Shown here in pieces: positions 2,192-16,167 of a stretch of 26,932 bases of DNA. Numbering within the stretch: position 1 is the stretch's first letter; each line of letters starts with the position of its first letter. The DNA is from Candidatus Heimdallarchaeota archaeon (GTDB taxonomy: Archaea > Asgardarchaeota > Wukongarchaeia > Wukongarchaeales > JBHIFL01): positions 1-26,932 of the forward strand of contig JBHIFL010000056.1 in NCBI GenBank assembly GCA_046761065.1, in the 5' to 3' direction. Made by a program: the position numbers and the translations under genes. The notes below the pieces were generated by a model. That model worked only from the letters and a program-made list of their open reading frames with translations, had not been told where the DNA came from and did not search any database.

Positions 2192-4264
2192 TTGAAAACT
2201 ATATTCGAGCGCCCTGATGTCACCCAAGAGCAATTTTACCATAAATTGTCTTTGATTCTAATAATGATCGCGAGTTTTTTCATTCGTATGATCCCTTATT
2301 GGAGATACGACCATTTACTCAAGGCGTTCGATCCTTACATTCAATTCGAGATAGCAAACCACATCTTGAATCATGGCTTCACAGATTGGGTGAACTGGGT
2401 AGACCAACAGACATGGTACCCAAATGGTCGAATAATGGGACAAAGCTCCTATATTGGTGTCCCTCTCAGCTCGGTAATCTTCTACAAGATCTTGCATGTA
2501 TTCAGGATAAATATTGATTTGATGACAATTTCATTCATTACTCCAGCGATCCTAGGAACCTTATCGGTTCTAGCAATTTATTTCCTGGGGAAAGAGGTTC
2601 AAGGTAAAAGAACAGGACTGTTCACAGCTCTCTTGTTGGGTGTAACTCCCGCGCATATTCAGAGAAGTATTACAGGCTTCTTTGATAATGAGAGTATCGG
2701 AATTCTTCTTCTAGTTGTAACTTATGTATTCTTTGTGCGTGGCCTTAAAACCAATAGCATGGTATATGGGCTTTTTGCAGGGATTACTCTTGGGTTTCTA
2801 GGCATAAGCTGGGGTGCTGCGAAATATGCCTTCGATTTTCTGGCACTTTACGTAATTGTTCTAATTCTCTTGAAAAAACATTCCACTCGTTTATTGGCGG
2901 CTTATGGTCCCTGTATCATTGTAGGAACAACAATCATCGCCATGATCCCCAAGATCGGGCCACAGATAATAACAAAGATTGATCACGCTTTCCCAATAGG
3001 GATCTTAATCCTATTAGCAGGTGTACTTGCCTATGAAGAGCTTGTTCAGACCACAGAAAAGCGTTCATCGCGTAAGTACACCCAATACTTCGCATTATTG
3101 GCAGGATTAGGGTTCACAGGGTTGATGCTTGCCCTTTGGGCCTTAGATATTGTGGGGGGGGTTGCAGGCAAATTTATTTCCGTCCTCTTTCCGTTCCTCA
3201 GAGAGGAACATCCCTTGATTGCAAGTGTAGCAGAGCATCTGCCTCTCAATTGGGCTAATATGTTCATTAACATTTATGTCATGACTTTTTTGATCCCAGT
3301 TGGTGTCCTCTACGCATTCCGACGCAGGAGAGAACTTGATATCTTTGCTCTACTCTTCACCTTGTCCAGTCTCTATTTTGCCAGCAGTATGGTTCGACTC
3401 CTGCTTATCCTTGCGCCTGCGGCCGCTCTCTTAAGTGGGATCGCACTCGACTCGATCATCACTCCCTTCGCCTTAGCATTCCAAGAACGGCTTACCCTTA
3501 GTAGGCGAAGACTCCGAGTCAGTGTGCATATTGGACGGGATTTCGCCGGCATTGCCATCCTCATCATCATGATGATGATGTTTTTCAACATCTGGCATGG
3601 CTTAAGATATACAAGTCGCAACCTATCCGCTCCCGAGATTGAGATCGCTTACGAAGTCAAAGGAACCCCGGAAACTGAATCCTTAGGAGATTGGCAAGAA
3701 GCTCTCGGCTGGTTACGCCTTAAAGGTCCTGAGACGATTGTCTTGAGTTGGTGGGACTATGGTTACTGGATCAGAGTTATGGGAAATGTCACAACTTTAG
3801 CAGACAATGCTACGGCTAATAGTACCCAAATTGGGAATATTGGAGCGTTCATGATCTCGACTCCAGACCTCTCGATAAAGATTGCAAAACTTTATGATGT
3901 CGATTACGTTGTTATCAACTTGGCAGCTGGTAATCTAAATGCGGGTTCGGATTTAGCAAAAGTTCAATGGATGATCAAGATCGGCGCAAAATACTCAAAT
4001 CTTGTGGATTTTGAGGTTACAGACTATTACATTGAGAATGCTACTCAACCCGAAGAGACCTTTACCGACAAATTCTGGAATTCCACCATTTATCAGCTGG
4101 CTCTCTATAATCTTGGCTCTCTCGTTTCTGAGATGCAAAAAGCTTATATAACGATGAAAAATGCCCCAATAGTCGATACCCTTCCCAAAGGCTTCAGGGA
4201 GGAGTATACGACCAAGAGCAATTGGGTTCGAATATACAGTGTTAATTACGATGACTTTGACTGA
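2192..4264 (+). CDS. aglB: Oligosaccharyltransferase catalytic subunit AglB/STT3 (eukaryote-like type)
   Basis: FDP acidic loop, WYPNGR, GFFDNE, IASVAEH, many TM helices, SWWDYGYWI (WWD at 3749), DNATANST and DLAKVQWMIKIG. The frame is open back to 2111, so the true start may be CTG at 2153. Confidence 0.97.
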   Translation: MKTIFERPDVTQEQFYHKLSLILIMIASFFIRMIPYWRYDHLLKAFDPYIQFEIANHILNHGFTDWVNWVDQQTWYPNGRIMGQSSYIGVPLSSVIFYKILHVFRINIDLMTISFITPAILGTLSVLAIYFLGKEVQGKRTGLFTALLLGVTPAHIQRSITGFFDNESIGILLLVVTYVFFVRGLKTNSMVYGLFAGITLGFLGISWGAAKYAFDFLALYVIVLILLKKHSTRLLAAYGPCIIVGTTIIAMIPKIGPQIITKIDHAFPIGILILLAGVLAYEELVQTTEKRSSRKYTQYFALLAGLGFTGLMLALWALDIVGGVAGKFISVLFPFLREEHPLIASVAEHLPLNWANMFINIYVMTFLIPVGVLYAFRRRRELDIFALLFTLSSLYFASSMVRLLLILAPAAALLSGIALDSIITPFALAFQERLTLSRRRLRVSVHIGRDFAGIAILIIMMMMFFNIWHGLRYTSRNLSAPEIEIAYEVKGTPETESLGDWQEALGWLRLKGPETIVLSWWDYGYWIRVMGNVTTLADNATANSTQIGNIGAFMISTPDLSIKIAKLYDVDYVVINLAAGNLNAGSDLAKVQWMIKIGAKYSNLVDFEVTDYYIENATQPEETFTDKFWNSTIYQLALYNLGSLVSEMQKAYITMKNAPIVDTLPKGFREEYTTKSNWVRIYSVNYDDFD

Positions 4265-4356
4265 TTCCCAAAGGTTTAGATTGTGTCGAACTATGTATTG
4301 TATGGTATTTACCTTGTTATGTCACATGGTCAGGTCAAAATAGAGGAAGCAGTCCT

Positions 4357-5343
4357 TTGAACAGGAGAGCAATAATAGTAGTAGCCAGAAGATCAACAAG
4401 AGCGGAAACATTCAAACGAATTTTACTAGAGCTAGGATTTAATGTTAGATTAGTCACCAGGAAGAGTAAACTAAGATATACTAATATTTTTTCGGAAATT
4501 TTGAGATGGAAGCCCAGCCTTATCCATATTTTGAATGGGCCAGAAATAGTTGGCCTTCCTTCTCTGATAGCGGCTAAGCTTATTGGAGCAAAAACAGTCT
4601 ATGACGTAAGATCAACCAGTTCTCTCAATATTGCAGAGAAATTTGGAAGAGGACTTTTGTTTGGTCTTGATTATCTGTTAGCAAAAAATTTGCCAAACAA
4701 GGCTGATGTTGTGATCACTCCTATACTCCAATACGCTCAAGAAAATCCTGAATGGGTTCTAATGCCGCAGGCAATTGATACGAGTGCCTTTAAGTCAGGA
4801 AGCCCTACTTCCAGAAATAGGAGAATAATTTTGTGTGTGAGCTCATTAACCCCAAAGGAAGGAATTGATACACTCATCAAAAGCATGGCGTACATTTCAG
4901 ACAATGTTGAACTGTGGATCATCGGGAATGGACCCGAAAAATCAAAATTGCAAACACTCGCAAGACAAGATCCCAGAATCAAGTTCTTAGGACATATCGT
5001 GCACTCTGCCATTCCGGATTATCTTAGTCAAGCATCTGTATGTGTTTTTGCTGCAAGAGGTGTGACTGTTCACAAATATGCCTCCTATACTTCTGTCCTG
5101 AAGATTGGAGAGTACTTGGCGGCACAAAAACCAATCGTCTCTTCAAATCTGGAAGCAATGATTCCAGCACGAGAATTTGGGGTGGTGTTTGCGGAGTCAA
5201 ATAATCCCCAAGACTTCGCAGAGAAAATAAAGGAGCAATTAAAGAACCCTACACCTACAAAAACTCCTATTGAAATTCGATATGATTATGTAAAACAAAG
5301 ATATCTAAATATAATCCAACACTTAGGATTTCGAGTTCTTTAA
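4357..5343 (+). CDS. Glycosyltransferase family 4 (GT-B)
   Basis: VYDVRS, SSLTPKEGIDTLIK, IIGNGPE, FLGHIVH, and LKIGEYLAAQKPIV (the KxxEYxA subtype of the GT4 motif). TTG start with GAGG upstream. Confidence 0.9.
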   Translation: MNRRAIIVVARRSTRAETFKRILLELGFNVRLVTRKSKLRYTNIFSEILRWKPSLIHILNGPEIVGLPSLIAAKLIGAKTVYDVRSTSSLNIAEKFGRGLLFGLDYLLAKNLPNKADVVITPILQYAQENPEWVLMPQAIDTSAFKSGSPTSRNRRIILCVSSLTPKEGIDTLIKSMAYISDNVELWIIGNGPEKSKLQTLARQDPRIKFLGHIVHSAIPDYLSQASVCVFAARGVTVHKYASYTSVLKIGEYLAAQKPIVSSNLEAMIPAREFGVVFAESNNPQDFAEKIKEQLKNPTPTKTPIEIRYDYVKQRYLNIIQHLGFRVL

Positions 5344-8062: not shown

Positions 8063-9568
8063 ATGACATATAACGAACAATTCAAGACAAAGACGATTAC
8101 AGGCACCTTTTTTCTTTCACTTCAACCAGTGAGCACTATGCTTATTGGTTTTCTCATAATTCATGCAATTTCAAAGAACATATCAGCAGAGGATTTGGGT
8201 ATTTTCTCGTTTCTTAGCATGTTATACAACTGGTACGCCAATATTTTCCTATTGATGATTCACGGGGCTATAACAAAATATGTAAGTGAATATATTGGGC
8301 GAGAAGACAAGCAAAAAATTAAGAATTTGATTAAAACAAACACAACATACATTTTACTAGTTGCTCCGGCAACAACTTTCATAGCTTTTTTTATGACTAT
8401 GTATATCTTTAACATTTTATTATTGAAAATTGACTTATTTACAATTTTGATCTTTTGTTTAGCAACTGGCTCAAGTATTGTTGTCATATTGATGACAGCA
8501 CTTGGACGAGGATTACAAAAACTTAGAAAAGTGGGAATTAATTCATTCATTGGAACAATTATAGCCCAGACAATTACTTGGGTTCTCCTTATTTCAGGGT
8601 TCGGAATATCTAGTTTGATTTTCAGATGGTTATTAGCTAACGTCATAATAAGCTTCTTACTAATAATCTCAGACAGATCTCTTATATCTTTGAAGGGGGA
8701 CTTTTTTCCCTTTAGAAAACTCGTTAATTTCGGGTTTCCAATCTTTCTTGCATCTATGATTGCATTTGTTGGTCAACAATCATTCCTCAGGATAGTACTG
8801 AAGAACTCTTTTTCATTAAATGAAGTCGGATATTTTGAATTCGGAATGAGGCTAAGTGTTCTTGTCAGTACATTGGCTCTTGGGTATCAATATGCTTTGA
8901 CTCCATATTTTGCAACCGATTATGGGTATGGAGGTGAACAACTCTTAAGTGAAAATCTCGGATGGACTATAAAATTTGGGTCATTTGTATTTTCACTAAT
9001 GATTATAAGTAGTGTGACTGTGGGAAAGATTATTTTCGATATTATATTCAATGAGTATCTCCCCGCTTATCCTTTTTTTGTTGTGTTAGTTTTTGGACTT
9101 TGGCCTGTATTGCTTTTTCGACCTTTCGCAGCTGTTTTAATGGCTGTGGGGCATCCTGAGAAGCTTTTAATTGCAAGAATAATTTCGACCATATTTGGTG
9201 TCCCTTTGGCATTTATTCTTATTAGGTTGGGCGCGTTGGGTATAACTTTAGTGTGGGTGTTCATGGACACAGTATTGAGTGGTTTAATTTTCGTTTTTAG
9301 TAGAAGATATGTTAAAATACGAGTTAACTGGAAAAAAACTCTCAAACTTCTGATTTCTGCTATTCTTGTCATTCCTGCTGTTATAGTTGAGATTCATTTT
9401 CTACAAGACTTTACTGCTCTTTTTGTGGTAATATTGACGAATCTTATTATATACATCGTTCTTGTAAGAACACTCGGTCTGATCACAGAAAGAGAAGTTT
9501 CAATTGCACTTGCTTTTATGCCTGAAGGTTTAAGGAAAAAAATTGCACGAATACTGAGCAAATATTAG
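8063..9568 (+). CDS. MOP-superfamily oligosaccharide flippase (Wzx/RfbX-like)
   Basis: 501 aa with roughly 12-14 hydrophobic segments; AEDLGIFS, ITKYVSEY, LVNFGFP, EVGYF and LMAVGHP patterns; located in a glycosylation cluster. Confidence 0.9.
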   Translation: MTYNEQFKTKTITGTFFLSLQPVSTMLIGFLIIHAISKNISAEDLGIFSFLSMLYNWYANIFLLMIHGAITKYVSEYIGREDKQKIKNLIKTNTTYILLVAPATTFIAFFMTMYIFNILLLKIDLFTILIFCLATGSSIVVILMTALGRGLQKLRKVGINSFIGTIIAQTITWVLLISGFGISSLIFRWLLANVIISFLLIISDRSLISLKGDFFPFRKLVNFGFPIFLASMIAFVGQQSFLRIVLKNSFSLNEVGYFEFGMRLSVLVSTLALGYQYALTPYFATDYGYGGEQLLSENLGWTIKFGSFVFSLMIISSVTVGKIIFDIIFNEYLPAYPFFVVLVFGLWPVLLFRPFAAVLMAVGHPEKLLIARIISTIFGVPLAFILIRLGALGITLVWVFMDTVLSGLIFVFSRRYVKIRVNWKKTLKLLISAILVIPAVIVEIHFLQDFTALFVVILTNLIIYIVLVRTLGLITEREVSIALAFMPEGLRKKIARILSKY

Positions 9569-9692
9569 CTAATAGAGAGAAATAGTGAATGATATTTCAG
9601 ACTCAAGTCAATAATGTAATTTTTGTCTTTAGAAAACAACTTAATCAACCATATACATTCGATATTGAATGAACGCGAATGAGGTAGAGATC

Positions 9693-10775
9693 ATGAAAAT
9701 ACCAATTGCAAAACCACGCTTATCAGAAAAAACCCTTGAAAAAGTGAAGTCCGTCTTAGAATCTGGGATGTGGATAGATAGTTCCAACGTAAAGAAACTT
9801 GAAGACGCGTTTGCAAGATATTTAGGGGTAAAATACGCGAGAGCAGTAAGTAATGGAACTGCTGCACTGATGGTAGCTGTTAATTCCCTGAATATAGGAT
9901 TAGGAGATGAAGTCATTGTTCCCAGTTTTTCATTCGCAGCTACTGCAAATTGTGTGTTATTCCAAGGTGCAAAACCAATATTTACAGATATCGATCCAAT
10001 GACCTTCAACATAGATCCTAGAAGTGTTAAAAAGAATCTCTCGAATAAAACAAAAGCTATAATTCCTGTTCATCTCTATGGCTTACCTGCACCAATGGAT
10101 GAGTTATCTGACTTGGCACACGATAGAATTTGGATAATCGAAGATGCATGTCAAGCCCATGGGGCTGAATACAACGGACAGAAGGTCGGGAGTATCGGAA
10201 CCATTGGGGTTTTTTCTCTTTACCCTACAAAAAACATGGTGTGTGGGGGGGAAGGCGGGTTGATTGTAACAAACAACGAGGAGATATTTGAGCGAATCCA
10301 ATTGTTTGTTAATCACGGTCAAGACAGAAAATATCATCATGTTGTGCTTGGCTACAATTTCAGGATGTCGGAAGTTAACGCAGTCATCGCATTGGACAGC
10401 CTTAAAACCCTTGATTCTTTCAATGATAAGAGAATCGCCAATGCCGAATCCTATAGTAGGGAATTGAGCGATGTTACATACCTCGACCTTCCAGTAACCC
10501 CCAATGGCTGTAAACATGTCTTTCATCAATATACAATTAAGTCGAAGATACGAGATCAAATCATAAAAACCTTTGAAGAAACCGGGATTGGGTTTGGAAT
10601 TCACTATCCTCTACCCATCCACTTACAACCCTTCTATAGGGCAACTCATGGCGATATCCACCTAAAGAACGCAGAAACCGTTGCTAAACATGCGATATCA
10701 ATTCCAGTCCGTCCTGATTTAACAGGAGAGGAAAAGAGAAAAATTATCAGTGTTTTGAGAGGACTAGGTGGCTGA
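9693..10775 (+). CDS. DegT/DnrJ/EryC1/StrS PLP sugar aminotransferase (WbpE/WlbC-like)
   Basis: [49 protein letters not shown] (PLP lysine), GEGG and GYNFRM. ATG 9693 follows GAGGT; the ORF track starts at 9669. Confidence 0.95.
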
Positions 10776-11364
10776 TGTGTCAAGAGAACTCGAGAAAAAC
10801 AAAGGTATAGTTGTTCACAAACATGTAAAAATAGGTCAAAGTCCCAATATCGGGTCATTTGTAGAGCTAGGGCTAAATGACATGTCCTTAGAAATTGGGG
10901 ATGATGCTGTTATAAGATCGGGATCCGTTATATATGGCAATGTCAAGATTGGTCACCATTTTCGATCAGGTCATCATATTTTAATCCGGGAGAAAACAAT
11001 AATCGGCGATAACGTTCAGATCGGAACCAATAGCATCGTCGATGGAAATTGTGTAATCGGTGATCATGTCAACATTCAAAGTAATGTCTACGTGACTTGG
11101 GGGATGAGGATAGAGGATGGAGTGTTTATGGGACCGTGTTCTGTCACAATCAATGATAAAATTCCTCCAGCAACAAATCGATCCTTGCTTCAGGCCTCTA
11201 TTTTGAGAAAAAAATGCGTCATAGGAGCTGGGGTAATAATCCTTCCTGGGATTGAGATAGGAGAAAATTCGTTGATCGGCGCTGGCTCAGTGGTTACGAA
11301 AAATATTCCTAAAAATGTAATAGCCTATGGCAATCCTTGTCGAGTGCAAAAAAGTAGAGAATAA
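10768..11364 (+). CDS. Left-handed beta-helix N-acetyltransferase (WbpD/WlbB-like)
   Basis: Hexapeptide repeats ([24 protein letters not shown]), IQSNVYV, FMGP, NDK and [12 protein letters not shown]. Overlaps the upstream gene by 8 nt. Confidence 0.93.
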
Positions 11365-11471
11365 GCAAAAATGTGGGGAGGGTAAAATCACGACTTCAAA
11401 AGTAACGAAGTAGATAGAAATATTTGAAATCTAGCTCAGGATTCATATGACTGGATCATTTTGGTGATAGT

Positions 11472-12863
11472 ATGACTTTACTTTTTCTCTCAATTGATGA
11501 ATTGAAAATGCGATTACGCTCTGGTAAGATTACAATTTCAGTGCATGGGTTAGGAAAGCTAGGATTACCTCTCGCAGTCATCTATGCAAATGCAGGCGCT
11601 CGAGTGATCGGAGTAGACCGTTCCCAAGAAATTGTCGATGCTCTTAACCAGGGAAAGATACTTGATAGCACCGAACCTCACATCCATGAGTTGGTTGAAT
11701 CTCTGGTTCACCAACAAAAGCTAAAAGCCACAATGAATGGCGTAGAAGCGGCCCGAAAATCCGATATATCGGTAATAGTGGTACCTACTCTAGTTGATGA
11801 GCGGTTAAGACCCAATCTATCATTTTTGAAATTAGCTGCAATAGATATCGGTCAAGGGCTACGAAAGGGAGATGTTGTGCTTTTGGAGAGTACGGTCCCT
11901 CCTGGGACTACGGAAAATTTTCTCCGCCCTGTTTTAGAAGACGTGAGTGGACTTACAGTTTCTAGGGATTTTGGGTTAGGATACAGTCCGGAACGGGTTT
12001 ATGTTGGACGTATAATCTCAGATGTTGTTGATCGCTATCCAAAATTAGTAGGAGGGATAGACAAAAAAAGTGAAGAGGTAATCGCTGCAATTTACGAGGT
12101 TATTGCCAGAAAGGGAGTTATCCGGCTTGGCAGCACACGAGCAGCAGAGATTACAAAGGTATTTGAAGGGATTTACAGAGATGTGAATATAGCACTTGCC
12201 AATGAAATGGCTTGGATCTGTGAAAAATTGAATGTTGATGTTTATAGAGTTATCCGAGCCGCTAATACACAGCCTTTTTGCAATATCCTACAGCCAGGAA
12301 TTGGTGTCGGGGGGCACTGTATTCCGGTATACCCTCATTTTCTAACGGATGTGATCGAATCTCTTAACCATAAACCTTCACTAATCCAAACTGCACGCAA
12401 AATCAATCTAAGAGCGCCTCTACATACAACTGAATTAGTACTAGCAGAACTAAAAGCTGCAGGAAAACCTTTGAAGAATACAAAAGTTACAGTTCTTGGT
12501 CTATCTTATAGGGCAGGAGTAAAAGAGGATCGATTCTCACCTGTATACCCATTAGTTGAAGCTTTGAAGGAACACGGCCTTGTGGTAGTGGTACACGACC
12601 CTTTATGGTCCCGGAATGAAGCAGATCGATTTCCATTTGACTTTACTGATGATCTAGAAGAAGCTCTTTCAGGAGCAGACTGTATTATAATCGCAACTGA
12701 ACATCGACAATATCAAGAAGAGACGCTTCTTCCGTTATTTGAGAATGTTAATAAGCCTATTATTCTAATAGATGGAAGAAGAATGTTAGATAAAACTCAG
12801 GTGATGAATATCAAAGACATGAGATATGTTGCGATTGGGGATATTTCTGTTCCTAACGGTTGA
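11472..12863 (+). CDS. UDP-N-acetylhexosamine 6-dehydrogenase (WbpA/WecC family)
   Basis: GLGKLG Rossmann motif, VVPT, LESTVPPGTT, YSPER, YRDVNIALANE, PGIGVGGHCIP (catalytic Cys), LGLSYR and DGRR. Confidence 0.95.
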   Translation: MTLLFLSIDELKMRLRSGKITISVHGLGKLGLPLAVIYANAGARVIGVDRSQEIVDALNQGKILDSTEPHIHELVESLVHQQKLKATMNGVEAARKSDISVIVVPTLVDERLRPNLSFLKLAAIDIGQGLRKGDVVLLESTVPPGTTENFLRPVLEDVSGLTVSRDFGLGYSPERVYVGRIISDVVDRYPKLVGGIDKKSEEVIAAIYEVIARKGVIRLGSTRAAEITKVFEGIYRDVNIALANEMAWICEKLNVDVYRVIRAANTQPFCNILQPGIGVGGHCIPVYPHFLTDVIESLNHKPSLIQTARKINLRAPLHTTELVLAELKAAGKPLKNTKVTVLGLSYRAGVKEDRFSPVYPLVEALKEHGLVVVVHDPLWSRNEADRFPFDFTDDLEEALSGADCIIIATEHRQYQEETLLPLFENVNKPIILIDGRRMLDKTQVMNIKDMRYVAIGDISVPNG

Positions 12864-12938
12864 TTATCCAACATATCTGAAGAGCCTTAATATCAGGCAA
12901 ATACATAACTTAATTATCTTTTTTTCTAATTAATTGCG

Positions 12939-13997
12939 CTATTCCCAGTTTATTCTTGTAACTTCACCTGTTTTTGCAGATTCAATCGCACTAAGAATGC
13001 ATCGTAAAGCGTTTGTTCCAACGATTCCATCTACTTCAGGAGCCCTATTATTGTGTAATGATTCTAAGAAATGTTTGTCCTGTAAATACAAGGGTTCAAC
13101 TCTGTCTTTAGTAAAAAGAAAGCGTTCAGTTTGTTCACGACCAAGATATGTAAACATAACATCCATAAAACCAGCTTTGGCGCTTTGTGGTACTTGCCCT
13201 TTTAATTCAACTACAGATTGAAGCACATAATCCATCGTTATTGTTCGAGAATAAGTTTGAATTGTAAGAAATCTTTGTTTTAAGTTGGGATTTGCGCGAT
13301 ATGAAGCTCTTAGGTTCGCCAAAAGGATTCCTTCGTCGTTGAAAGGGATTTCAAAAGTATAAATTGCTTGTAACTCTGAAGCATAAAGAAAATTAGTCGG
13401 TTTAGCTTCAACAGCGGTTACAAATGTAGGTTTGGAGTCAAACAAATACATACATATGTCTATATCATGGATTAAGAGATCAAAACCTACGCCATGATAA
13501 GATTTAGGGCTTGGGGGACCTGGTCCAATCCTTTTTGAAAAAAAATCAATAATTGGTTCATCTTCAATTAGTTCTTGAAGGGTTGTCTTTAAGGCAGTGA
13601 CTGCGGGATTGAATCGCTCGATATGTCCAACTTGAAGGAATTTTTTATGCTTCTTGGCCGTTTCAAGTATGTGTTTTGCATCATGAAGAGTGAGTGCTAT
13701 TGGCTTTTCAATGAATAAATGTGAAAATGGAAGCAGTTTCATTGCGAGTTCGTAATGAGTATCTGTTGGGGAAGCAATAATAGCAGCATCTGGTGTTTTT
13801 TCTTTTAACATTTCATCGATATTGGAAAAAGCATCATGTATATTATATTGTGCTGTAATTCTGTTTAACGTCTCTTGATTATGGTCACATAAAATGAGTT
13901 CATCACATAAACCCATTTCAGAAAGCTCTGAATAAACCCTTACATGGTTGTATCCCCACTTACCACCCCCAATAATAGCTAAGGATAGGTTTTTCAT
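12939..13997 (-). CDS. Gfo/Idh/MocA oxidoreductase (WbpB/WlbA-like UDP-GlcNAcA 3-dehydrogenase)
   Basis: IIGGGKWGYNH, SPTDTH, FIEKPIA, VGHIERFNPA and DLLIHDID. GTGAGG RBS upstream. Confidence 0.92.
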   Translation of the reverse strand: MKNLSLAIIGGGKWGYNHVRVYSELSEMGLCDELILCDHNQETLNRITAQYNIHDAFSNIDEMLKEKTPDAAIIASPTDTHYELAMKLLPFSHLFIEKPIALTLHDAKHILETAKKHKKFLQVGHIERFNPAVTALKTTLQELIEDEPIIDFFSKRIGPGPPSPKSYHGVGFDLLIHDIDICMYLFDSKPTFVTAVEAKPTNFLYASELQAIYTFEIPFNDEGILLANLRASYRANPNLKQRFLTIQTYSRTITMDYVLQSVVELKGQVPQSAKAGFMDVMFTYLGREQTERFLFTKDRVEPLYLQDKHFLESLHNNRAPEVDGIVGTNALRCILSAIESAKTGEVTRINWE

Positions 13998-14099: not shown

Positions 14100-15122
14100 T
14101 TAACTGATATTTAAACGGACCACGAATATCTCAGCATAGACTAAAGCAACTACAAGTATCATTACTACAAATTGGATTGCCCAAAAGAGGTAAACTATCT
14201 GCTTTTCTGTTAGATCATACTTCCACATGATTAAATGGGTTAAAGAGCTGATTTGGGTTTTTCCATTTAACTTAGGAGGTTTAAGTTTACCTTCGTCACT
14301 TAAAACACCAAAACTCTCTCCGTTGAATTTTGTTTTGGCTTTAAAAAAAAGTTCGAAAAAATGTAAACCTAATATAGCTGTTCCTGCCATAGGAAGTAAT
14401 GCAACAGCTCCAGCTTTTTCCATATTTCCCATTGTAGACATTATAGCCAAAGATGCGCCTATGATTAGGGTTCCAGTATCTCCGGGAAAAATCTTGGCAG
14501 GATAGATATTGTATTTCAAAAAGGCAAGTAAAGCGCCTAATAAAGTAAGTCCAAAAATAGCACTAATATTAGAATCTGTTATAAAAGCACAAATAACCAA
14601 TCCTCCACATGCTATAGCACCTATACCTGTTTCTAGACCATTTAAGCCTGCTAACATATTTATCGCATTAGCTGCTCCTGTTATCGCAATTGGGATAATA
14701 ATAAACCAATAAATCCTTCCTAATTCCAATATGCCAAAAAAGGGAATATAAACCAAAGATCTTCCAAAACGGATCATAACTAAAGGAGCGCTTCCGAAGG
14801 CGCATAAAATAACTTTTTGAGATTGTTTTAACGGAAAAAGGTCGTCTATCATTCCAATTATCGCAATAAGAGTAAGAGTACATAAGGCAGCAAGCAGGAT
14901 TGTTTTAGAAATAGTATCTACAAAAGTAGCAGTAATAATTATGCTTGAAATCATTCCTATTAGAATAATTACTCCTCCCATTTCCGGAACTCTAGGTTTA
15001 TCAACTTTATGAAAATCAATTCCTACAATACCTATTTTTTCAAGTTTTTTAGTCATATAAGGAGTCAATACTAAAGTGACAATAAATGAAATAACAAAAG
15101 GTATTACAAATTCCAGAATCAT
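14100..15122 (-). CDS. aglH: UDP-GlcNAc:dolichyl-phosphate GlcNAc-1-phosphotransferase (AglH/Alg7/DPAGT1, MraY superfamily)
   Basis: GIDFHK..PRVPEMGG, IGMIDD, NAINMLAGLNGLETG, YNIYPAKIFPGDTG and SLTHL; about 10 TM helices. Confidence 0.93.
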   Translation of the reverse strand: MILEFVIPFVISFIVTLVLTPYMTKKLEKIGIVGIDFHKVDKPRVPEMGGVIILIGMISSIIITATFVDTISKTILLAALCTLTLIAIIGMIDDLFPLKQSQKVILCAFGSAPLVMIRFGRSLVYIPFFGILELGRIYWFIIIPIAITGAANAINMLAGLNGLETGIGAIACGGLVICAFITDSNISAIFGLTLLGALLAFLKYNIYPAKIFPGDTGTLIIGASLAIMSTMGNMEKAGAVALLPMAGTAILGLHFFELFFKAKTKFNGESFGVLSDEGKLKPPKLNGKTQISSLTHLIMWKYDLTEKQIVYLFWAIQFVVMILVVALVYAEIFVVRLNIS

Positions 15123-15238
15123 GTATATCCTTCTACTTCTTTATTGTTGAATAGATATTAGCTTTGCTTTCGAATTATATGATGTTAAAATGATGATTTA
15201 ACCAAATATATTTTTGTTTGGAAATTGAATCATTTAAT

Positions 15239-15715
15239 ATGCGAAAAAAAGTGCTTTTAGTGATGAGTCATGGTGGACATACTAAACAAATGTTACTTTT
15301 AGACGAACAACTAAAACCAAAAATTGACTCATGCTATCTTGTACTCAAAAGAGAGCGATTTGGACTAGATAAAATGCATGGAGAGATTTATCGAATTTTT
15401 GGAGCTAGGAAAAAAGATTCTGGCTTGATTTACGATATTTTTGGAACTTTAGTTATGATTTTTCAATCATTCTGGATTTTACTAAAGGCGAGGCCTGATG
15501 CAATTATATCTTGTGGAACAAGTTCATCTGTACCAATTTCCTATCTAGGAAAACTTATGGGAAGGAAAGTAATTTTCATTGAAAGTTGGTCTCGTGTTTT
15601 TGACCGATCTTTATCAGGGCGACTAATCTATCCAATTGCTGATCTATTATTCGTTCAATGGAAAAAATTGAAAGCTTTATATCCCAAAGCTATTTATGCA
15701 GGCCGATTTAGATGA
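15239..15715 (+). CDS. alg14: Alg14-like acceptor-binding subunit of a split GT-B glycosyltransferase
   Basis: SHGGHTKQM, RPDAIISCG..SVP, FIESWSRV..SLSGRL and FVQW..LKALYPKAIYAGR. ATG 15239 is preferred over TTG 15218. Confidence 0.92.
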   Translation: MRKKVLLVMSHGGHTKQMLLLDEQLKPKIDSCYLVLKRERFGLDKMHGEIYRIFGARKKDSGLIYDIFGTLVMIFQSFWILLKARPDAIISCGTSSSVPISYLGKLMGRKVIFIESWSRVFDRSLSGRLIYPIADLLFVQWKKLKALYPKAIYAGRFR

Positions 15716-16167
15716 TTTTTATAACAGTGGGTACTACAGAATTTGATGCCTTGCTTAGAAAGATCGATAACTTAGTTGAGAATAAAAAAATTCGAAATGA
15801 GGTTATAGCGCAAATTGGAAACGGTAGTTACGTTCCAAAAAATATCAAATTTTTTCGATTCGCAAAATCATTAATCCCTTTTTTAAAAAAAGCGAAGTTA
15901 ATCATATCTCATGCGGGAGCTGCTACGATTTTTGAATGTTTAGAGCTTAAAAAGAAACTCATTGTAATTGAAAATCCAGATGTAAGAAGAGATGCCAAAC
16001 AATTTTTGAAAGAATTATCCAGTAAAAATTACTTAATCTGGTGTAAACATATCGACCAATTGTTAGAGTGTATTGAAAGTGCAAATACCATACAATTAAA
16101 CTATTACAGTTCTCCAAAATGTACGATCTCAGAAAAAATCATCAATTTTCTGAACCAAAATATGTGA
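15712..16167 (+). CDS. alg13: Alg13-like nucleotide-sugar-binding subunit (GT28 C-terminal-like)
   Basis: MIFITVGTTEFD, QIGNGSYVP, LIISHAGAATIFE and LIVIEN. ATGA 4-nt overlap with alg14. Confidence 0.92.
   Translation: MIFITVGTTEFDALLRKIDNLVENKKIRNEVIAQIGNGSYVPKNIKFFRFAKSLIPFLKKAKLIISHAGAATIFECLELKKKLIVIENPDVRRDAKQFLKELSSKNYLIWCKHIDQLLECIESANTIQLNYYSSPKCTISEKIINFLNQNM

Follow-up and report, generated by a model that had tools for sequence, protein, structure and literature searches.

Alg13 and Alg14 make the chitobiose core under every eukaryotic N-glycan, and relatives of the pair in archaea figure centrally in the discussion of how this pathway arose. In eukaryotes the pair is a UDP-N-acetylglucosamine (UDP-GlcNAc) transferase responsible for the second, dolichol-linked step. 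Here we describe an Alg14/Alg13-like pair encoded by a contig of 26,932 nucleotides from a Candidatus Heimdallarchaeota archaeon (JBHIFL010000056.1, assembly GCA_046761065.1), which as a whole is referred to below as the window. The archaeal pair shares with the eukaryotic one the Alg14/Alg13 split, the fold, the G-loop and the GGH and Glu motifs of Alg14, and is likewise linked to an Alg7-type polyprenyl-phosphate N-acetylhexosamine (HexNAc)-1-phosphate transferase (GPT) and to an STT3/AglB oligosaccharyltransferase. In contrast, where eukaryotic ALG13 reads N-N-H-Q, including N107, the window protein reads R-R-D-A in a loop that is one residue shorter; it is 27-30% identical to eukaryotic sequences, and its predicted donor is not UDP-GlcNAc. 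We lean, though cautiously, towards the view that the sugar which the pair moves onto lipid-linked GlcNAc carries a 3-acetamido group and is most likely 2,3-diacetamido-2,3-dideoxy-glucuronate (GlcNAc3NAcA).

The same two-gene architecture is found in the bacterial enzymes PssD/PssE (the GlcA-beta-1,4-Glc transferase of Rhizobium), Cps14F/G and EpsE/F. Those of the PssD/PssE type add a second sugar to a lipid-linked monosaccharide in an inverting beta-1,4 transfer, as predicted for the window pair, but the PssDE, Cps14 and Eps enzymes serve exopolysaccharide or capsule synthesis, whereas the window pair accompanies AglB; moreover, the bacterial EpsF/Cps14G-type loci of our survey ('VPR' type) keep the His-Gln (H-Q) dyad that the window protein lacks. 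MurG, of glycosyltransferase (GT) family GT28, has the same C-terminal domain fold, an SGALT motif that resembles HAGAAT of the window protein, and the residues Q288/Q289 in place of the family H-Q, but it is a single fused chain with lipid I as acceptor and keeps its Q-Q. Among archaeal enzymes, Agl24 (the chitobiose synthase of Sulfolobus acidocaldarius, GT115) and the MJ1255 family are GT-B enzymes for the second N-glycan sugar, like the window pair, although Agl24 is a fused protein of a different clade with UDP-GlcNAc as donor.

A diacetamido uronic acid, HexA(NAc)2, is the second N-glycan sugar in Methanococcus, where it is added by the GT2 enzymes AglC and AglO. AglC/AglK of Methanococcus voltae and AglO of M. 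maripaludis, with GlcNAc3NAcA as second sugar, are functional analogues of the predicted enzyme without homology to the Alg13/14 pair. Their fold is GT-A, their carrier is Dol-P instead of Dol-PP, and the linkage that they form is beta-1,3. The core of Pyrobaculum calidifontis is GlcA(NAc)2-beta-1,4-Glc(NAc)2; an AglC homologue has been proposed for it (Meyer et al.), and the beta-1,4 HexA(NAc)2 step of Pyrobaculum-type archaea has no enzyme assigned. The sole Asgard archaeon analysed so far is devoid of a chitobiose core. In the literature library that we searched, no paper ties GlcNAc3NAcA to an Alg13/14- or EpsE/F-type enzyme.

The Alg13-like protein and its donor loop

The donor-binding half of the split GT-B transferase is an open reading frame (ORF) of 151 amino acids on the forward strand (15712-16167), which contains LIISHAGAATIFECLELKKKLIVIENPDVRRDAKQFLKELSS and reads SHAGAAT followed by IENPDVRRDAKQFLKE. 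The two motifs highlighted by the original prediction, HAGAA and RRDAKQF, are both present within 15901-16020 as it had read them: the G-loop H67-A71 (HAGAA) at 15910-15924, and the donor-sugar loop R92-F98 (RRDAKQF) at 15985-16005, in which alignments show D94-A95 replacing H-Q and the loss of one residue. The ORF matches PF04101 (Glyco_tran_28_C) with 72.1 bits (cut-off 22). Its predecessor on the same strand (15218-15715, likely start ATG 15239) is the Alg14/PssD-like acceptor and membrane half (PF08660, 84 bits), and the Alg14 stop and the Alg13 ATG overlap by 4 nt (ATGA). Both halves pass the equivalog cut-offs of the NCBIfam models for PssE/Cps14G (NF041548, 137.6 bits, cut-off 120) and PssD (NF041549, 143.5 bits, cut-off 110), and the catalytic motifs of the Alg14 partner are kept, namely GGH (SHGGHT) and the conserved Glu (IESWSR).

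The AF2 model of the Alg13-like protein (pLDDT 88.4) has the Rossmann-type fold of a GT-B C-terminal domain, and its Foldseek matches are GT-B donor domains, yeast Alg13 (2jzc) and MurG (7d1i) among them; in the structure library no sequence match to an ALG13/14 heterodimer was found. In the model, residues 87-94 form a loop after strand 82-86, and helix 95-104 starts at A95. The family profile aligns D94-A95 with the consensus H-Q and with Q-Q of Escherichia coli MurG, and HMMER and hhalign agree in placing the family H-Q on D-H-Q of A. baumannii MurG and on R-Q-Q of the E. coli enzyme. MurG Q288/Q289 touch the 3'- and 4'-OH of GlcNAc (PMC5785501), so that the proposed location of the dyad beside the donor sugar is supported by homology with MurG. 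The residue preceding the dyad aligns with human ALG13 N107, and the N107S variant retains 8% activity (PMC9527342); loss of both H-Q and the N107 equivalent argues against the use of UDP-GlcNAc by the window enzyme, as far as alignments can tell.

Of 161 library homologues, 131 keep an H-Q or Q-Q dyad, as do 115 of the 135 loci taken from public contigs (about 85%). Judged from these alignments, the window protein thus truly deviates from the PssE/Cps14G/Alg13 family, with D94-A95 where the others have H-Q or Q-Q. The G-loop carries no such signal: HAGAA had been presented as a replacement of HAGxG, but the dyad-keeping sister P0005 reads HGGAAT and MurG SGALT. Nor does the description of the enzyme as eukaryote-type hold without reserve, given that the protein passes the PssE cut-off; what stands is a weak grouping of 23 rows, which unites the window's clade with eukaryote-like sequences and sequences from Asgard archaea and its own phylum (SH-aLRT 89, unstarred, 154 columns).

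Authenticity of the loop and selection

Logan unitigs of three sequencing runs, all from hydrothermal-vent metagenomes, cover 15919-16091 with no indels and a single synonymous variant, at V91, in one run; the three runs belong to one study, probably derive from the source sample and are not independent. No RNA run is listed among the holders of this stretch. A dyad-less loop of the form VRR[A/D]A is also found in L004, L006, L088 and P0003, which come from other samples and are 81-90% identical, so that five independent assemblies show it, with R92-R93 and A95 invariant and positions 94 and 96-98 differing among close relatives. The more distant P0007 (56% identity) reads VRRPA, with R-R and the aligned Ala kept. 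Within the clade that lacks the dyad, pairwise dN/dS values lie at 0.14-0.33 (Alg13) and 0.08-0.46 (Alg14), and the Alg13-like gene is therefore under purifying selection.

Assembly error was accordingly rejected on account of the shared loop in five assemblies and the agreeing unitigs, and relaxed selection or pseudogene formation on account of the dN/dS of 0.14-0.33 and the intact Alg14 motifs; both had been named in the original prediction as outcomes that would undo it, and the bases it wished to see confirmed in raw data are borne out by the unitigs, apart from the synonymous V91 variant of one run. An origin of the loop by a compensated frameshift was also discarded, since the nucleotide alignment with the related contig L005 consists of many substitutions and one 3-nt gap, with no frame-shifted similarity seen.

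The unitigs also contain a second haplotype at 15863-15918 and 16092-16144, with 5-7 linked differences per unitig, in all runs and at about one quarter to one half of the depth, indicating that the samples contain two or more strains. The loop is unaltered in either haplotype.

Loss of the dyad within the window's clade

The window sequence and its dyad-keeping sisters belong to an eight-member clade (support 97, starred), in which the closest relatives that keep H-Q, P0005 (72%), P0006 (68%) and P0017 (49%), read VRG[K/R]HQ. It follows that H-Q is the ancestral state of the clade and that the loss took place inside it. Of the 21 fixed differences between the groups without and with H-Q, six fall in one 8-column stretch of the loop (permutation p=0.006).

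The contrast extends to the neighbouring genes. The window encodes, at 9669-13997, all four enzyme families of the UDP-GlcNAc3NAcA pathway (WbpA/B/E/D; cf. Methanococcus MMP0350-0353): a DegT-family sugar aminotransferase, WbpE-like (9669-10775, forward strand; PF01041, 382 bits); a hexapeptide-repeat N-acetyltransferase, WbpD-like (10768-11364, forward; Pfam Hexapep, NeuD/PglB/VioB subfamily); a UDP-sugar 6-dehydrogenase, WbpA/WecC-like (11472-12863, forward; PF03721, PF00984 and PF03720; TIGR03026, 382 bits); and a Gfo/Idh/MocA oxidoreductase (GFO) resembling WbpB and UDP-GlcNAc 3-dehydrogenase (12939-13997, reverse; PF01408, best NCBIfam match NF040723). Between the GFO and the Alg14-Alg13 pair lies the AglH/Alg7-type GPT (14100-15122, reverse strand, divergent from the pair; PF00953, 123 bits). 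The contig of P0005 (L005), which keeps H-Q, and the window are collinear over a stretch that runs from the stop codon of GPT through Alg14 and Alg13 into arcTGT, which the window also encodes, and their nucleotide identity there is 85%. Upstream of GPT, however, L005 has about 1.7 kb of small ORFs, versus about 6.9 kb in the window holding the flippase, aminotransferase, acetyltransferase, 6-dehydrogenase and oxidoreductase block. The whole wbp and flippase block is present in L004 and L088, both without H-Q, so that these two and the window hold all four wbp-like enzymes side by side; L006 has three of the four, including the 6-dehydrogenase. The L004 contig carries its 6-dehydrogenase in two or more pieces (ORFs 3824-4654 and 4764-5045), owing to a frameshift or an assembly error.

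Survey of other loci

To extend the comparison, 160 loci were fetched with a profile of the clade, and each was classed by its loop and checked within 8 kb for homologues of the pathway genes of the window, the gene set being a 3-dehydrogenase-like GFO with an aminotransferase and/or acetyltransferase and sometimes a 6-dehydrogenase. Where at least 5 kb of upstream sequence was available, this 3-amino-sugar gene set accompanied eight of nine loci without H-Q and two of 62 with it (naive Fisher p=4e-8). Once more loci from one archaeal class had been included, the gene set was present in 11 of 16 full-flank loci without H-Q, and with 47 loci from the window's phylum added, in two of 109 with H-Q. 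The contigs of P0017, P0007, P0116, P0065, P0057 and P0019 are too short to judge the neighbourhood.

The arrangement of these operons is recurrent. In L120, L030 and L247, GPT is divergent from a run of GFO, 6-dehydrogenase, acetyltransferase, (aminotransferase), Alg14 and Alg13, and in L044 and L249 from GFO, acetyltransferase, aminotransferase, Alg14 and Alg13; L253 has the latter operon on a contig that begins just upstream of GFO, so that GPT is not visible on it. The operons of L044, L249 and L253 are without a 6-dehydrogenase, and Alg14-Alg13 is the sole GT inside that of L044. Against the archaeal model for UDP-GlcNAc 3-dehydrogenase, the GFOs of five loci lacking H-Q (L030, L044, L092, L099 and L120) reach 254-402 bits, and on two short contigs of this kind (L231 and L230) a DegT aminotransferase adjoins. 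The forms without H-Q are scattered over several places in the trees, with loop types that go by clade (RRxA, NPD, NHEL and QxENxD), and a TACK-type clade (97-98, starred) is separate from that of the window.

Taken together, loss of H-Q goes with 3-amino-sugar genes as a strong tendency and is neither strictly necessary nor sufficient for their adjacency, because exceptions exist both ways. The co-occurrence with wbpABDE that the original prediction had put forward for checking is thus seen in the sister contrast and in several other archaeal clades, but it fails as a universal rule, with the Q-x-[ED]-N-[IL]-D-I subtype, L109, L123 and L121 as exceptions.

The survey also brought to light a distinct type of split Alg13-like protein with the G-loop SNCGAGT (GNCGAGT in L226), no His and an H-E dyad (GGHEWE), found in the window's own phylum in L199, L201, L206, L207, L211, L213, L222, L224-L226 and L228, and also in L050/L051. 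Among the split Alg13 loci sampled from the window's phylum, 59 could be scored and 12 are of this type; none of these 12 has the 3-amino-sugar gene set nearby. Split Alg13 genes as such are present in many genomes of the phylum. In L245, L246, L250 and L251 (Q-x-E-N-I-D-I) a three-gene cassette GPT|Alg14-Alg13 stands alone, as a second kind of enzyme without H-Q. Finally, L232 (772-4937) and L233 carry an operon AglB-Alg14-GPT-Alg13, with GPT between the transferase halves and an Alg13 lacking H-Q (GKNSDLL).

Proposed donor and mechanism

The loss of the dyad, its place at the donor-sugar site by homology, the purifying selection, the intact catalytic motifs and the genomic association are observed; which sugar is donated, how it is linked and what the change means structurally are inferred. 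The Alg14-like and Alg13-like proteins would form an active two-subunit inverting GT-B transferase that adds the second sugar to a lipid-linked HexNAc supplied by the neighbouring GPT. The H-Q dyad, predicted to form hydrogen bonds to 3-OH and 4-OH of the hexose in the donor, would have given way to small residues (D/A/P, then Ala) in a loop shortened by one residue, and the remodelled pocket would suit a donor in which an acetamido group replaces the 3-hydroxyl. Such a donor offers no 3-hydroxyl and needs room at C3, and so small residues and a short loop would fit it, by homology with MurG. UDP-GlcNAc3NAcA, the predicted product of the four adjacent wbpABDE-like enzymes, is the candidate donor; the pair would make GlcNAc3NAcA-beta-1,4-GlcNAc-PP-lipid, which would then be extended before AglB moves the glycan to Asn. 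The N-glycan core that the pair builds is thus probably a modified one and not the standard type.

The characterised members of the family use UDP-Glc, UDP-Gal, UDP-GlcNAc or UDP-GlcA. All four donors have free 3- and 4-hydroxyls, which agrees with a dyad that binds 3-OH and 4-OH whatever sits at C2, C4 (as epimer) or C6. Since PssDE already takes UDP-GlcA, the carboxylate is an unlikely driver of the change, and the 3-substituent would be a better reason for the loss of H-Q. The original prediction had taken two newly gained arginines, alongside the loss of H-Q, as fitting a carboxylated, 3-substituted donor. R92, however, is common to the dyad-keeping sisters (VRGKHQ, VRGRHQ), R93 replaces their K/R, and other clades without H-Q have an adjacent 6-dehydrogenase and no Arg in the loop. 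Taken as a whole, the original prediction is partly supported.

As to the configuration, no UDP-GlcNAc 2-epimerase (PF02350) was found in the window's genome, which is 91.5% complete, an incompleteness that limits this negative; the control was found in 11 of 14 genomes. Without an epimerase, gluco-configured GlcNAc3NAcA is the expected product, and the known HexNAc donor of the family also has this configuration. The genome has no second canonical Alg13/14 pair and a single Alg14 match. Its other GT28_C match is a fused GT-B protein of 413 amino acids from the MJ1255/VC2487 family (C1:158614-159039; L002 790-2031), with an N-terminal GIGAGH loop and 99.9 bits on TIGR00661, under the cut-off. 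This MJ1255-like protein is a possible alternative second-step transferase of the genome.

Weighing the alternatives

Several observations weigh against a 3-acetamido donor for the pair. The GFO of the window scores 173 bits on the UDP-GlcNAc 3-dehydrogenase model NF040723, against a cut-off of 450. The organism of L005 is known from a contig of 6.9 kb only and may carry wbp genes elsewhere. The independent contrasts number two on well-supported branches and about five in total, in a tree that is short and poorly resolved, and with so few neither a sign test nor a corrected test can reach significance. Among the exceptions, four of five full-flank loci of the Q-x-[ED]-N-[IL]-D-I subtype consist of GPT|Alg14-Alg13 without wbp genes, and two of these genomes show no 3-dehydrogenase at all, nor was one seen in three further metagenome-assembled genomes (MAGs) with cut contigs and completeness not established; L121 is another locus without either H-Q or wbp genes. 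Conversely, the bacterial loci L109 and L123 keep H-Q and directly adjoin 3-dehydrogenase-like and aminotransferase genes. Furthermore, the four other GTs of the window (three GT4 and one GT2) could use the wbp product instead, and the wbp product could itself be the first sugar, transferred by GPT, in parallel to Pyrobaculum, where both core sugars are di-N-acetylated.

One alternative, which we consider unlikely, is that the pair is still a UDP-GlcNAc transferase making chitobiose, with a loop that has drifted or been compensated, while the wbp product is used by one of the other GT4 or GT2 enzymes or by GPT as first sugar. The transferases known for di-N-acetylated uronic sugars in Pseudomonas are GT4 enzymes, and GT4 genes are at hand in the window; the subtype from genomes with no detectable 3-dehydrogenase implies that some other activity is possible without H-Q, and L109 and L123 show that the dyad can stay next to the same pathway genes. 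On the other hand, about 85% of the family keep the dyad, and its characterised members, which may or may not carry H-Q themselves, use Glc, Gal, GlcNAc and GlcA donors (a tblastn search of a plasmid collection for Rhizobium PssE and its dyad matched only lactobacilli). The adjacent substitution N107S alone suffices to drop human ALG13 to 8%, the changes in the window's clade are concentrated in the donor loop, and in the L044 operon of 3-dehydrogenase, acetyltransferase and aminotransferase there is no GT other than an Alg14-Alg13 pair without H-Q.

Comparably improbable is a change of donor to something else, whether UDP-GlcNAcA, the non-oxidised UDP-GlcNAc3NAc or some modified HexNAc to which the neighbouring pathway is irrelevant. 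The lack of a 6-dehydrogenase in L044, L249 and L253 points to a GlcNAc3NAc donor there, the oxidation step could stand at more than one place in the window's pathway, and the clade-specific loops (RRxA, NPD, NHEL, QxENxD) may mean different donors. Against this, the 6-dehydrogenase is present in the window, L004, L006 and L088, and the four enzymes together make the uronic form. It is very improbable that the loop is an artefact of sequencing or assembly or belongs to a decaying pseudo-enzyme on which selection has relaxed, which the lower model confidence in the loop (mean pLDDT 76, residues 91-100) and its variable positions 94 and 96-98 might suggest, but which the five assemblies, the unitigs of three runs without indel, the dN/dS of 0.14-0.33, the invariant R92-R93 and A95 and the intact Alg14 motifs largely refute.

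Other genes of the window

Upstream of the pathway genes, and within the block that is absent from L005, the window encodes a flippase-type membrane protein of polysaccharide biosynthesis (8063-9568, forward strand; PF13440), and further upstream the AglB/STT3 oligosaccharyltransferase (2192-4264, forward; PF02516, 180 bits). Together with these two genes, two of the GT4 genes are among the surroundings of Alg14-Alg13. A Roadblock/LC7 protein (PF03259, 20285-20719), of a family typical of the 'eukaryotic signature' of Asgard archaea, is encoded between a PAP2-type gene and a GT4 gene. This protein, arcTGT and the split Alg13 genes in many genomes of the phylum mark the organism as archaeal and Asgard-like.

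Implications for archaeal N-glycan cores

Returning to the 3-acetamido donor that we favour, the enzyme assignment proposed here is new, and the predicted core has precedents. The GlcNAc3NAcA-GlcNAc core of the original prediction can thus be retained as a proposal but not as unprecedented, since such cores occur in Pyrobaculum and Nitrososphaera. Our data put the Alg13/14-like family forward as a further candidate for the Pyrobaculum core step, and the pair could catalyse the HexA(NAc)2-beta-1,4 step in cores of the Pyrobaculum/Nitrososphaera type, where previously only a GT2 enzyme had been suggested. A search with an NPD-type protein for a link to Pyrobaculum or Nitrososphaera returned Methanomethylicia-type names only, and the 'Nitrososphaerota'-labelled MAGs L114 and L119 fall in one class with Methanomethylicales. 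Quite possibly, although we stop a little short of calling it probable, the pairs without H-Q are the missing beta-1,4 transferases for a 2,3-diacetamido (uronic) second sugar in these 'modified chitobiose' cores and arose more than once, with origins, on the same tentative footing, in Methanomethylicia-type MAGs, DPANN-labelled MAGs and an Asgard-like lineage (labels of the public records). If these pairs are 3-acetamido transferases, the window's clade may capture the switch almost in the act, which we hold as tentatively as that premise, because a sister at 85% nucleotide identity keeps H-Q and is without the sugar-pathway block.

The pairing of dyad loss with a 3-acetamido-sugar pathway constitutes a natural series in which a specificity determinant can be tested. 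Should the window pair prefer UDP-GlcNAc after all, the loop would be more tolerant than the phenotype of human N107S suggests. If the proposal is true, the donor loop after the fourth strand would be a signature by which the N-glycan core chemistry of uncultured archaea could be predicted from metagenomes.

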